From IMG/VR virus record IMGVR_UViG_3300013382_000004: DNA of 64,000 bases; one strand, given 5' to 3'. Below the pieces are notes generated by a model, which worked only from the letters and a program-made list of their open reading frames with translations, made no database searches and had not been told where the DNA came from. The position numbers and the translations under genes are program-made. Of this stretch, positions 56,512 through 63,599 are shown in pieces. How positions within the stretch are numbered: the first letter of the stretch is position 1; every line of letters starts with the position of its first letter. The DNA is from a virus (lineage: Duplodnaviria > Caudoviricetes).

Positions 56512-57096
56512 TTAGTTCCCCTTAAAGTAATATTCATAACGCTCTCCATCCCAAAGAGGATGCTTAACATTCTTTTCAACATGCCAATCATAATATTCGC
56601 CCTTTTCATCTACATCGGCAACATAGCAATTATCATCAGGGTCACAACTGTTATCATTGCCAGTGTAAATACAACTTCTTGGGTCAAAAAGAAAGCGTTT
56701 TAATTTGTCATCATCTTCAAGAATTTCATTAATGAATGGAATGAGTTCTCCTGCATGGTCTACAGAACCACTACAGTCCCAAGATTCCCAATCACTATAT
56801 TTACTTGTCTCTCTTTTGTAATCAGGAACAAAGATTTTAATCTTAAAGTCTTCTTCAAGCTTACGTTTAAATTCCTTTGCTTGAGCACCCATGTCACAAT
56901 CAAGCATAGCTGTATAAAGATAAGAAGCCTTATCTTCCGTGGAAGAGTAGCAACTTCTTTCCCAGCCATAATCTTTATCTGCATTAAAATTTAGATAAGC
57001 TGGAATATGTTCTGGACCATAATTGTCCTTTGAAATAACAAGAGAATGACAAGAACTTGAATTTGTTTCAAATACATTTTTACGAATTTGTTTCAT
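56512..57096 (-). CDS. FETNSSS-motif protein 1
   Basis: MKQIRKNVFETNSSSCHSL; start overlaps radical SAM stop. Confidence 0.8.
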   Translation of the reverse strand: MKQIRKNVFETNSSSCHSLVISKDNYGPEHIPAYLNFNADKDYGWERSCYSSTEDKASYLYTAMLDCDMGAQAKEFKRKLEEDFKIKIFVPDYKRETSKYSDWESWDCSGSVDHAGELIPFINEILEDDDKLKRFLFDPRSCIYTGNDNSCDPDDNCYVADVDEKGEYYDWHVEKNVKHPLWDGERYEYYFKGN

Positions 57097-57994
57097 TATT
57101 CTTCTCCTCATTTAAATCTCTCAAAAACTGATACATTTCAGTAACAGTCTTATTACCAACATCATAGCGGTTATTTACATCACAAGAATTTCTTGCGAAC
57201 TGCATTTCAACTCCATCAATGTACATAGAAGCACTGGTCTGTTCGCCATCTTGGCCGTCATCACCCATGTACATAGTATTCCAATCTTCCTCAGACATAA
57301 GACGCTGAGGTTCAAGCTGCTTAATAGCAAGATTGTCAAAACTAATAACAGAGAACCACTTCTCGTTAATCATACGACCAAGATTGTCATAGATTGCCTT
57401 CTGCTTATTAGCTACAAGTTCCTTGGCCCAATCTTCCTTAACATATTCCTCACCACGGCGAACAGTCTTGTAACCAAGAATAAGAATCTTAAGGTTACGA
57501 TTCTTAAGAGCACGAAGAGTATCCATTGTTACAATGCCATTAATGACATGGAGAACAAGATTGGGATACTTAGAAATAGTCTTAAGAAACTGCGGCTGAA
57601 GAGGGTCAACAAGAGAGACACCAATACCATAGATGAGCTTTTCCTTAACAAGCTGTTCAATAAGCTCCTGATTCTTCATAAAGGCAAACTGATGAACAGT
57701 CATATTAGGAATAAGATTCAATTCCTTACACTTGCGAAGAAAAGGAATCAAGTCAGGATGAGAAAGGGGGTCTCCACCTCCAATTGCAAGCTCTGTGTAT
57801 TCATGGAAACTTTCAAGAACCTTGATACCCTGTTCACCAAGAATGTCACCATGCTTGCCAGTTGGAGTGCTATTTTCATGACAATTACTTACCAAAATAT
57901 TTTCGACAAAATAATTGTGATTATCTTTTACTTCAATATTATAAACTTTTCCACTATAAGAAATTCTTTCGATAGAATCAATTTTCATTTTCAT
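57080..57994 (-). CDS. split intein C-part (37 aa) fused to radical SAM C-extein
   Basis: KVYNIEVKDNHNYFVENILVSN|CHENS; then ELAIGGGDPLSHP, NMTV, GIGVS, ISFDNLA. Confidence 0.85.
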   Translation of the reverse strand: MKMKIDSIERISYSGKVYNIEVKDNHNYFVENILVSNCHENSTPTGKHGDILGEQGIKVLESFHEYTELAIGGGDPLSHPDLIPFLRKCKELNLIPNMTVHQFAFMKNQELIEQLVKEKLIYGIGVSLVDPLQPQFLKTISKYPNLVLHVINGIVTMDTLRALKNRNLKILILGYKTVRRGEEYVKEDWAKELVANKQKAIYDNLGRMINEKWFSVISFDNLAIKQLEPQRLMSEEDWNTMYMGDDGQDGEQTSASMYIDGVEMQFARNSCDVNNRYDVGNKTVTEMYQFLRDLNEEKNNETNS

Positions 57995-58964
57995 CTTCCT
58001 TACTATCTAAAATATGTCTTTTATGAAATTTAGGGTCTACTTTATCATGACAAGATTCACATACTACTAATCCAATATCATGAGAATTGTGATAATCTAC
58101 AATAGCCTTTTCAAGTTTTAAATAGTCTTCTGACATATATTCAACTTTTTGACCATTTAAACCTAATTCTTTTAGAAATCTTTCAAATATTTCTATAAAG
58201 GGTTCTTTATGATGAACGTGCAAATATCCCCGTCTTGCCCCACAAACTTCACAGGTATAATTAGTTCTTTCAAAATTTGCCTTTTTCCAATCTCTTAAAC
58301 GAATTCGGATATAATTCTATAAAGAGCGAGTTCCTTTAAAACTTTTTCTTTCTTTGCCTCGGGGATATTTTAATTCACCTGATTCCAAAAGCTTTTTAAG
58401 AGTTTTTTGTTTTTTGTCTTTGCTATCTGGGTTATTCATTGGATTATTATTTTTCATACGCTTAGATGCTTCTTTTCTATTTTGTTCTTTGCGTATTTCT
58501 TTTTGCTGTTTGTCTTGTTCCTTTTCTTTTTCTTTCTAACAATATTCTTCCCAAGTTAATTCTTGTTCGTAAACAGGATTGTTTAATTTCATCCTTAAAG
58601 AAGCTTCAAGATTATTCTTCTTTTTGCATTCATCACAAGTATACGCAGGATTGTTTTTGAGATTTTTTCTGGTTACTTTTTTAGTAACTGTTTTTAAAAT
58701 TTTTCCGCACTATCTACATATAATATTTTGCTAAAATTCTTTTAAAATATGCGGTTTTTCTTTTATACATTCAGGACAAAGCTCTTTACTTTGTTTTGCA
58801 GTAGCCTAATATTCTTTCCCGCATTTCTAACAAATGTAAGTTTTAGTTTTATTTTTATACTATATACGATGCCACTCTTTTCGACATTCGTTATTAAAAC
58901 AAACAATGGTTCTACTATCTCTTGTTTCAAATTCCTGCTAACATATTTGGCACTACTTAATTAT
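57978..58964 (-). mobile_element. free-standing HNH homing endonuclease gene, 9 in-frame TAGs, probable ATA start
   Basis: GAGGT-8nt-ATA; KqCQICqQEF, CqKCGKEYq, CRqCGK zinc fingers; RMKNNNPM; CEVCG..LHVHH...CESCH. Confidence 0.8.
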
Positions 58965-59403
58965 AAAGCATTACCTCATCATTGGTTGTCAAAAAGCCAG
59001 CTTCTACCCAACCTCTATTAATAGTATAAATCTTATGATTAGGAGTACAAATAATAGTTTTATCTTCGACTGTGATTTTAATTAATTCTCCATTATAATC
59101 ACGTTCATAAAGTTTAACGACAGGCTTCAATTCTTTAATATGATTTTCCAAATTATAAGAATCAACAATATCTCCGATATTCACTTCTTCAATCGGGACA
59201 TCGTTTCCATTAACTTTTACTTTTACTCCAGCAGGAAAACAGAAACTACAACCCTGTGCGCAATTATTAGTAATTTTATAGTCGCAACATTCTGGAAAAT
59301 CAGCCTTGAAAAAGCTTAAATCATTTTCACGAGTCTTGGTCCCATTGTCCAAGTCGATGGAAACCATATAATTACCGTTCTGATAAGTCTTAATATTACT
59401 CAT
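58957..59403 (-). CDS. radical SAM N-extein (54 aa) fused to split intein N-part (94 aa)
   Basis: KITNNCAQGCSF|CFPAG...IEEVNIGD.V...CTPNHKIYT..GWVEA..L...DEV then TAA. Confidence 0.85.
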   Translation of the reverse strand: MSNIKTYQNGNYMVSIDLDNGTKTRENDLSFFKADFPECCDYKITNNCAQGCSFCFPAGVKVKVNGNDVPIEEVNIGDIVDSYNLENHIKELKPVVKLYERDYNGELIKITVEDKTIICTPNHKIYTINRGWVEAGFLTTNDEVMLYN

Positions 59404-59660
59404 TAATCCATCACCACTTTCTTCATATCTTCTTCCTTTTCCCAAACTTCCTCAATTGCAGGATAAACAACAGAAGAAGTCATTTTGTGATTACACTTGG
59501 GACATACATACTCATAAAGAGGTGTAAAAATAGCACAAGCCATTTCACTCAGCTTCATTTCAACATCACAATCACTACAATAGATGCGATGAACCTTGCG
59601 ATACTTAAGATATTCTTTTGTTACACGTTCGCTATACAATTTAACTCCATTAGTGCTCAC
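59403..59660 (-). CDS. zinc-ribbon protein
   Basis: YCSDC...YVCPKC...YP. Confidence 0.7.
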   Translation of the reverse strand: MSTNGVKLYSERVTKEYLKYRKVHRIYCSDCDVEMKLSEMACAIFTPLYEYVCPKCNHKMTSSVVYPAIEEVWEKEEDMKKVVMD

Positions 59661-59680
59661 AGAGATTGTCCTCCATATTA

Positions 59681-62710: not shown

Positions 62711-62715
62711 AAAAA

Positions 62716-62769
62716 TACCTCTCCTTATTTTTCTACTGAAAGAATATCATAAGGAGAGGTAAATGTCAA
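62716..62769 (-). promoter_or_regulatory. sigmaA promoter with 13-bp spacer/SD inverted repeat
   Basis: tacctctccttat 62716-62728 / ataaggagaggta 62749-62761; TTGACA-17-TATTCT. Confidence 0.75.
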
Positions 62770-62796
62770 GCCTTTATTAAATTATTTTCCGTTTAA

Positions 62797-63000
62797 TTAC
62801 TGAAGAGAAATTTCCTCAATAATTTCAAACTGGCTTAAATCATTTGCGTCAAACTTCTTATCCTGTTCACAATACATAATGCCTACAAGACCAAGAGCAC
62901 CAAACTGATTAGGAAGAGGCATAATCTGATATACACGATAGGTCTTACCATCAAGCGCATTCTTCTTCTTACATTTAAACATATAACTATTATTAGCCAT
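62797..63000 (-). CDS. hypothetical protein
   Basis: ORF with SD AAGGAG. Confidence 0.7.
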   Translation of the reverse strand: MANNSYMFKCKKKNALDGKTYRVYQIMPLPNQFGALGLVGIMYCEQDKKFDANDLSQFEIIEEISLQ

Positions 63001-63050
63001 TTATAATACTCCTTAAAATTTCACTTTTATTCTATCTTGTTTTATTTTTG

Positions 63051-63599
63051 TTAGTGATTATCGTTGTCGATAATCAAACTATAACCTTTATTAAAAATAT
63101 AATCTTCTAAAGTAATTCTGTCTCTTGTAAAAATATAATACATTCCATCAGAAACATAATAATCAAGACTTTGATGGTCTACATAACCATCTTCATCAGG
63201 ACTAATTTTGATTCCTATAATGTGAATGTCATGTTTAGAAAGAGCATACTTTACATCATCTTCGAACTTTTGGAAATCATCAGATTCCATAACTTCTTTA
63301 ATAGCTTCTTCTTTATCTTCTCTGCTGCTCCAATTAACATTGTAACCTTGAAAACAAGTTATAGCAGTTAAGATATATTCAAGTTTAGCTACTGCGCTAT
63401 TTTCGTCTAAGTTAGATTCCCAACCCCAGCCAAAGGCTTCAAAATTTAATTTTAGATATTTACCGTAACCATTGTGACCATAATCTTCTTCAATATAATC
63501 ATCTAATTGAGTATAATCATAATTATCTTTATTGCTAATACTCAATGAATGAACACTTGAAGAATTAGTCTCAAAAACATTTTTTCTTGTTTGTTTCAT
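63051..63599 (-). CDS. FETNSSS-motif protein 4
   Basis: MKQTRKNVFETNSSSVHSL; FGW, GYVDHQS, IIDNDN. Confidence 0.8.
   Translation of the reverse strand: MKQTRKNVFETNSSSVHSLSISNKDNYDYTQLDDYIEEDYGHNGYGKYLKLNFEAFGWGWESNLDENSAVAKLEYILTAITCFQGYNVNWSSREDKEEAIKEVMESDDFQKFEDDVKYALSKHDIHIIGIKISPDEDGYVDHQSLDYYVSDGMYYIFTRDRITLEDYIFNKGYSLIIDNDNH

Follow-up and report, generated by a model that had tools for sequence, protein, structure and literature searches.

What is the function of an N-terminus shared by four proteins of one phage, and is it connected with the radical S-adenosylmethionine (SAM) enzyme encoded among them? Both questions were raised by a preliminary description of a 64,000-nucleotide stretch of the virus record IMGVR_UViG_3300013382_000004. 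This stretch, the window, belongs to the genome of a large gut phage. Four open reading frames (ORFs), here called clients 1 to 4, carry the common N-terminus (the tag), and the radical SAM gene (57080-59403, minus strand) lies between clients 1 and 2. We see an even chance that these genes belong to a two-part phage module, consisting of one small radical SAM maturase and one to nine N-terminally tagged acidic clients. This reading is based on an invariant tag on dissimilar bodies, its fixed N-terminal position, the ratio of one enzyme to one to nine clients, same-strand adjacency across distant phages, and an enzyme model resembling peptide maturases.

The shared N-terminus and the bodies behind it

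The four ORFs were recovered where the preliminary description had placed them, all on the minus strand:

56512..57096, minus strand: client 1, body type A, 194 aa; ORF with the tag MKQIRKNVFETNSSSCH, then a globular body
61218..61661, minus strand: client 2, body type B, 147 aa; tag, acidic linker and a conserved C-terminal end like ...VVAFGxYGYD
62063..62710, minus strand: client 3, body type C, 215 aa; identified by its ORF, body clustering and the type C alignment
63051..63599, minus strand: client 4, second type A copy, 182 aa; assigned by hhalign against the type A profile, ending directly after ...IIDNDN

Their N-termini read MKQ(I/T)R(K/H)NVFETNSSSxH. Within the first 21 residues 17 positions are invariant, among them M1, K2, Q3, R5, N7, V8, F9, E10, T11, N12, S13, S14, S15, H17, L19 and I21. 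The general consensus of the tag is R-x4-F-E-T-N-S-S-S-x-H. A motif scan of the whole window gave no fifth copy. The serine codons differ between the four copies (TCA-AGT-TCT; TCT-TCT-TCT; AGT-AGC-TCA; TCT-TCA-AGT). Because they cross the TCN and AGY boxes, the tag is conserved by selection on the protein, and not by recent DNA duplication.

Clients 1 and 2 are identical over 32 nucleotides from the ATG (57065-57096 = 61630-61661), as noticed earlier, or 33 with the preceding A. This identity is in part due to an overlap architecture that occurs twice. The first 17 nucleotides of both genes are ATGAAACAAATTCGTAA (57080-57096 and 61645-61661, minus strand). They carry an out-of-frame stop, so that the radical SAM ORF and the ORF at 61645-62094 both end with ...ETNS inside the start of the next gene. 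The ATG of client 1 (57096) lies 14 nucleotides upstream of the stop of the C-terminal radical SAM ORF (57080-57082). This arrangement fits the translational coupling suggested for the two genes, and client 2 overlaps its upstream ORF in the same manner. The codons TAG and CGG are both avoided by the module genes, which gives the same reading under either genetic code. A resemblance of E-x-N-x-S to the bacterial N-glycosylation sequon was taken as a coincidence, with neither a signal peptide nor a link to a glycosyltransferase.

To place the tag in protein space, a tag-only profile of 34 columns was searched against 1.84 billion representatives. It matched 6,701 clusters (50% identity) at E<=0.001, and 444 at E<=1e-10. 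In almost every one of the best 150 matches the tag began at residue 1-3, and two apparent tandem fusions of two clients were seen. A search among longer proteins gave no fusion of the tag to a known domain, only type A bodies with uncharacterised C-terminal extensions. Some type A clients (the metagenomic proteins P0269, P0270 and P0272) have extensions of ~180 aa; the tail of P0269 is Lys/Ala-rich and histone-H1-like, which hints at nucleic-acid binding in some lineages. The tag was unmatched in Pfam, NCBIfam, the PDB and the literature. Nothing relevant came up in full-text searches for the motif or for radical SAM maturases of phages, and no paper on the tag or on the pair was found.

The bodies were compared in 86 loci: the window, 80 loci that a type A profile search retrieved from IMG/VR, and five others. 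Clustering of their tagged ORFs by body resulted in three types:

Type A (clients 1 and 4): 102 genes in 85 loci, median 193 aa
Type B (client 2): 68 loci, median 136 aa
Type C (client 3): 26 loci, median 210 aa

Client lengths ranged from 45 to 242 aa, with medians by body type of 136-210 aa. The median isoelectric point was 4.5 in the pooled loci. Profile-profile comparison between body types aligned the tag alone (the first 26-28 residues for type A against client 3). With the tag cut off, no similarity between types A, B and C was found (hhalign probability <1%; the type C profile holds 5 sequences and its sensitivity is low). Homology of the three bodies was rejected, within the sensitivity of hhalign. 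The idea of a portable N-terminal tag was thus borne out, as it is carried by bodies without detectable similarity to each other. The opposite possibility, that the motif is a core strand of a known domain, was also pursued, and no known domain was found.

The preliminary description had further claimed distal motifs common to three of the copies. For clients 1 and 4 these stand: the two are homologous over their full length and share YGW/FGW and G.VDH, and client 4 aligned to the type A profile with 99% hhalign probability over 144 columns. The distal motifs of client 3 are short collinear matches in a MAFFT alignment, and were not supported by profile comparison.

Conservation beyond the tag differs between the types. 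The invariant residues of type A are R5, E10, N12, S13-15, H17, G44, W45, Y59, D113, H114, T145, G146, N147, D148, K192 and N194, and a C-terminal K-G-N is conserved. In an alignment of 19 diverse type B proteins, the invariants were the tag and G145, with F141 and G142 nearly invariant; the remainder is an acidic linker and the short C-terminal ...VVAFGxYGYD end. Type C has the conserved blocks F.RSPF, K..YA.A, GGTDD and DGDE.

None of the four clients belongs to a Pfam, NCBIfam or PADLOC family. Client 1 matches phrog_28997 (E 6.8e-19), a family whose function is unknown; residues 3-166 of the client align with positions 5-154 of the 165-position profile. Clients 2 and 4 match this profile through the tag only, and client 3 does not match it. 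For client 1, 490 homologues of similar length were found; no source assigns them a function, and a few are labelled 'hypothetical protein'. The type A profile gave nothing at E<=10 against all PDB sequences. Megablast of the region against phage records and tblastn of client 4 were both without a match.

The AlphaFold2 model of client 1 was confident, with a predicted local distance difference test score (pLDDT) of 92 and a predicted template modelling score of 0.87. Residues 1-3 and 8-11 of the tag had a pLDDT <50, and the body >90, a prediction that fits a flexible, accessible N-terminal arm. Fold searches with this model gave no convincing match (best Foldseek PDB E 0.83; best Z 2.5 in a wide VIA-align search), which does not by itself prove a new fold. 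A search of BFVD retrieved one uncharacterised phage protein only. Readings of the client motifs as an SGNH hydrolase, an alkaline-phosphatase-like enzyme or a metallophosphatase were dropped, as the motif order was unfit and no fold match was found.

Linkage to one radical SAM family

The client-side loci were searched with the window exteins and with gp128 of Ma-LMM01, and their ORFs were clustered all-against-all. Two families alone were conserved across lineages: the tagged proteins (198 genes in the 86 loci) and a radical SAM protein of ~300 aa (80 loci). The genes are tightly packed. Their usual order is type A, sometimes type C or a second type A, then type B, then the enzyme; in the lineage of the window the enzyme precedes client 1 instead. 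In L003/L004, a neighbour of 293 aa was identified by tblastn as the radical SAM enzyme. Two genomes (those behind the loci L026 and L027) have a type A copy and no enzyme within 10 kb. Both encode the enzyme elsewhere (E ~1e-118), and one of them has a tagged ORF beside its distant enzyme.

The linkage was also seen from the enzyme side, where one to six tagged ORFs lay within 6 kb in 75 of 80 loci. On species-representative genome contigs, the enzyme was found in 58 of 75 loci, and in 42 of the 48 loci of >=10 kb. These contigs are mostly metagenome-assembled genomes (MAGs), and the isolates include Eubacterium plexicaudatum ASF492 and Thomasclavelia cocleata DSM 1551. Among pooled enzyme-bearing loci, all 338 clients were on the strand of the enzyme and 288 were upstream of it, with one to nine clients per locus. 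Since the loci were retrieved by way of type A or of the enzyme, and are often closely related to each other, a dereplicated count was made as well: the enzyme was nearby for 92 of 113 client clusters (50% identity). The pair also occurs in the isolated Microcystis cyanophage Ma-LMM01, as gp130 and, two genes away, gp128, an 'Fe-S oxidoreductase'. Type A clients were present in Lak megaphages as well. Motif genes occurring independently of the enzyme would have spoken against the maturase proposal of the preliminary description. The motif was instead linked tightly and reciprocally to one radical SAM family in diverse phages.

Some loci contain arrays of six to nine tagged ORFs, namely L236/L237 (Prevotella and Fibrobacter MAG contigs) and L223/L224 (Bacilli and Methanobrevibacter MAG contigs). 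The contig binned with the archaeal Methanobrevibacter MAG may derive from an archaeal virus or be a binning artefact. Upstream of the cassette in relatives (L003/L004, 5465-8600), genes for an RNA ligase, a KTI12/AAA_33 kinase and a metallophosphatase were found. 'Orphan' clients (L001/L002, 4317-4523) lie among small AcrIC5-, Sequestin-, YodL- and Tad2-like genes, surroundings of an accessory or counter-defence type.

In the window, the module is part of a block of small minus-strand genes at 48-64 kb, with a G+C content of ~0.33. About 1 kb downstream of client 1, with a 123-aa ORF between, is the gene for a 575-aa protein (53788-55515, minus strand) matching DUF2828 and DUF7788/vWA (phrog_850 'RNA-binding protein', Ro60-like). 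Its G+C content is 0.40, compared with ~0.33 around it, and its arginine codons (27 CGT, 0 AGA) are far from the usage of its neighbours. A 169-aa ORF (59681-60190, minus strand) begins with MGYTTEFNG and matches phrog_38666 (unknown function). It lies a short distance upstream of the N-terminal half of the radical SAM gene, with an 85-aa zinc-ribbon-like ORF between, and was not kept with the cassette in other lineages.

The enzyme and its split gene

The radical SAM gene of the window is split by an intein before the third cysteine of its CxxxCxxC motif. Its pieces, in the direction of transcription, are:

59242..59403, minus strand: radical SAM N-extein, 54 aa, ending in ...CAQGCSF, read from the translation
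58960..59241, minus strand: N-terminal intein piece, 94 aa, starting with CFPAGVKV... and followed by a stop; matches TIGR01445 and Pfam Intein_splicing and PT-HINT
57978..58223, minus strand: free-standing ORF between the gene halves, with an HNH-like His/Cys pattern, from the ORF list
57884..57994, minus strand: C-terminal intein piece, 37 aa, ending in ...VSN, in frame with the C-extein; Pfam Intein_splicing at residues 4-37
57083..57883, minus strand: radical SAM C-extein, starting with Cys+1 (CHENST...), read from the translation; stop codon at 57080-57082

The N-terminal intein piece scored 31 bits with TIGR01445 (intein_Nterm; cut-off 24.5). The two gene pieces are in different frames with stops between them, and ~960 bases, including the small HNH-like ORF, separate the stop of the N-terminal intein piece from the C-terminal one. 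The small ORF reaches 58592 when TAG is read as Gln. It matched no Pfam or NCBIfam family, and its HNH reading comes from the sequence pattern alone. The splice junction was set by intein-free orthologues, of which L006 reads CAQGCSFCHENST across it. In the window, the motif is complete only over the junction (CAQGCSF, then CHENS). Since the intein interrupts the cluster-binding motif, the enzyme should be inactive until spliced, and judging from the gene layout it probably must first be trans-spliced. Separated halves were also found in at least one other relative, L009. The C-extein is 97% identical to uninterrupted orthologues such as L006, and matches phrog_16999 'Fe-S oxidoreductase' (E 4e-29).

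Both its sequence family and its predicted fold indicate that the enzyme is a member of the radical SAM superfamily. The intact L006 orthologue scored 39.5 bits with PF04055 (cut-off 29.5), and 11 of 16 diverse family members match this profile; the halves in the window scored 18.3 and 14.6 bits, each under the cut-off. Only three cysteines were invariant among the 16 members (C48, C52 and C55, the CxxxCxxC motif). Further conserved features of the family are a hairpin region near the N-terminus, YxNGNYxVxIxxDGTKxR, and blocks that include SFDNLA and YMGDDG. No radical SAM subfamily model fits the enzyme, and PADLOC gave a weak similarity to viperin only. The family comprises at least 6,844 clusters at 90% identity, and none of the 120 best listed has a functional name.

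The enzyme model (pLDDT 87.6) begins with a sheet of three strands (4-9, 12-17 and 22-26), which is conserved, and shows the partial TIM-barrel fold of radical SAM enzymes. It matched 111 solved chains at Z>=8, and the top 50 were almost all radical SAM enzymes. The nearest folds were SuiB (Z 18.8, root-mean-square deviation 4.2, 293 residues aligned) and SkfB (Z 18.2, deviation 4.4, 278 aligned). They were followed by EpeE (Z 16.3), viperin-like enzymes (16.1), PqqE (15.4), BlsE (15.3), anSME (14.9), MoaA (14.4) and PFL-AE (10.6). SuiB and SkfB are maturases of ribosomally synthesised and post-translationally modified peptides (RiPPs), and their alignments start at model residues 1-2. Compared with a RiPP recognition element-like domain, the N-terminal sheet is present in the model and the winged-helix helices are absent. 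It is suggestive, though not decisive, that the two RiPP maturases lead by about two Z units in these model comparisons, partly through alignment of the N-terminal sheet.

What the enzyme may do to its clients

In the maturase reading, the free N-terminal tag would be both the recognition and the modification site of the enzyme. Docking would involve its first half (Q-I-R-x-x-V-F-E), perhaps with the conserved N-terminal three-stranded sheet of the enzyme as the contact, and the 5'-deoxyadenosyl radical would take a hydrogen from the N-S-S-S-x-H part. Every client would receive the same chemical change. That enzyme and client bind, which residue is changed and by what chemistry, and what the module does during infection are inferences.

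A complex was predicted from the intact orthologue, a 4Fe-4S cluster, SAM and client 1, along with three controls. The enzyme-client pair scored 0.45 (runs 0.37, 0.48 and 0.45) and the best of the controls 0.00, a verdict of 'weak support'. The runs agreed in at least 30% of contacts, with a partner pLDDT of at least 70. In calibration, 58 of 80 solved complexes passed the mark set for the complex score, compared with 2 of 110 mismatched pairs; passes at 0.60 or under came from only 7 of those 80 solved complexes, plus both passing mismatches.

The closest known systems are those of the best fold neighbours, SuiB (streptide; PDB 5v1q/5v1t) and SkfB (sporulation killing factor; 6efn). There, a conserved stretch of peptide in a genetically linked substrate is recognised by a single enzyme, as proposed for the phage pair. 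Unlike them, the phage enzyme is without the SPASM/twitch auxiliary-cluster cysteines. Its clients are not short precursor peptides but proteins of 100-240 residues, at least one of which is predicted with confidence to be a folded domain. The segment that they conserve lies at the very N-terminus, and no other part of them is as invariant. In contrast to RiPP systems, no protease or exporter is conserved in the phage cassette (86 loci).

Anaerobic sulfatase maturases (anSME/AtsB; PDB 4k36-4k39), to which the enzyme had been likened in the preliminary description, also serve many full-length clients with a short serine motif near the N-terminus by means of a single radical SAM enzyme. The analogy fails on the auxiliary-cluster cysteines, which the phage enzyme lacks, and on the substrate motif. 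The phage tag reads ETNSSSxH instead of (C/S)-x-(P/A)-x-R and lacks a conserved Pro/Ala-x-Arg downstream of its serines; the clients are no sulfatases either, and have no match among known families. The broader proposal of a maturase with several substrates fared better, with the tag, the linkage, the maturase-like enzyme model and the weak pass of the predicted complex in its favour.

The glycyl-radical activases PflA and NrdG resemble the phage enzyme in being small, in having no auxiliary cluster, in acting (as proposed for the phage enzyme) on folded proteins and in their CxxxCxxC-H-(N/E) motif. However, the phage tag has no invariant glycine or RVxG-type motif, and the invariant glycine of type B stands in an FGxYG context. 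The fold likeness to PFL-AE is clearly lower than to the leading neighbours, and the match to NrdG was weak (E 0.0012, 18.8 bits against a cut-off of 126.1). With no auxiliary cluster, sulfatase motif, precursor with protease or exporter, or glycyl-radical motif, the chemistry is not transferable from any of these families.

Several observations weigh against a maturase. The auxiliary-cluster cysteines of the nearest peptide-modifying neighbours are absent from the alignment of 16 members, and small-molecule enzymes (viperin-like, BlsE, MoaA) are nearly as close in fold. Five of the 80 enzyme loci had no tagged ORF within 6 kb, even by a loose pattern. The predicted complex is a weak pass only, without a contact listing, and any modification of the tag, at Ser, Asn or elsewhere, is a prediction. 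Finally, type A has extra invariant polar residues (D113-H114 and N147-D148), and S15-H17 fall in the first strand (15-22) of its model, so that the tag could belong to an active site.

The last point leads to the strongest alternative, which we consider rather unlikely but well worth weighing. Clients and enzyme would be partners in a pathway or complex, and the tag a catalytic strand or one that binds a ligand, which might be a metal, a phosphate or the product of the radical SAM enzyme. A small molecule made or used by the enzyme would be bound or processed by the clients. Such a partnership would account for the enzyme-like invariants of type A beyond the tag (G44-W45, Y59, D113-H114, T145-G146-N147-D148 and the C-terminal K-G-N), for S15-H17 in strand 1 of a confident globular model, and for an enzyme without auxiliary cluster whose fold is nearly as near to small-molecule enzymes as to peptide maturases. 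But types B and C hold the tag invariant without the invariants of type A, and type B conserves little beyond the tag and its C-terminal end. One enzyme per one to nine clients is the pattern of a maturase with many substrates, and the start of the tag at residue 1-3 also argues against a partnership of this kind.

If the enzyme is a maturase, its chemistry would have to differ from that of its neighbours. Hydrogen abstraction from the serine beta-carbon followed by oxidation, with a DesII-type electron return, has no net need of an auxiliary cluster and is a candidate. Any single chemistry, this one included, is unlikely at best. The full claim is possible, though we lean towards doubting it: a minimal radical SAM enzyme without auxiliary cluster would modify the N-S-S-S-x-H of as many as nine folded, acidic and mutually dissimilar proteins in a way not known so far.

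Two further explanations do without a modifying enzyme. The tag may be a self-processing site, at which N-S-S undergoes an N-to-O acyl shift or Asn cyclisation and an N-terminal Ser nucleophile or pyruvoyl group is exposed, with the enzyme only loosely connected. Known self-processing enzymes cleave on the N-terminal side of a Ser, Thr or Cys, and the N-terminal fragment left over is short; the Asn-Ser-Ser-Ser-x-His is indeed invariant at a fixed short distance from Met1. We judge this improbable, because the tight reciprocal linkage to the radical SAM gene would be unexplained, type B has no candidate active-site residues, and the client model has no similarity to N-terminal nucleophile or pyruvoyl folds (best VIA Z 2.5, which is not excluding). 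More improbable still is a targeting signal, for instance for the capsid, like the N-termini shared by the internal proteins of T4, with cleavage by a prohead protease after V-F-E: several dissimilar proteins of one phage do have only an N-terminal peptide in common, and V-F-E resembles the T4 prohead protease consensus (L/I)-x-E, but a signal coevolving with a scaffold would not be expected to be near-identical in gut phages, Lak megaphages and a cyanophage, the tag accompanies the radical SAM gene and not head genes, and conservation runs past the putative cleavage site through S15 and H17.

Both partner families are very large. They were found in Lak megaphages and a cultured cyanophage as well as in large phages of gut anaerobes, and none of the members listed for either is named by any source. 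The type A client has a confident predicted fold, for which no solved relative was found. Should the tag indeed be modified by the enzyme, whole proteins would be matured by a radical SAM enzyme via a universal N-terminal tag, and the chemistry could not be of the SPASM type. This would then constitute a new class of protein maturation, apart from RiPP maturation, sulfatase maturation and glycyl-radical activation. Hundreds of dark-matter phage proteins would at the same time become approachable, as carriers of the tag would be clients. That the clients are acidic, multi-copy and diversifying, and lie among small accessory genes, suggests a possible role in host takeover or counter-defence. 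If the full claim holds, the modification might be a Ser-derived reactive group or cofactor; the clients would then have one 'warhead' or cofactor in common on different targeting bodies, which could serve such purposes.

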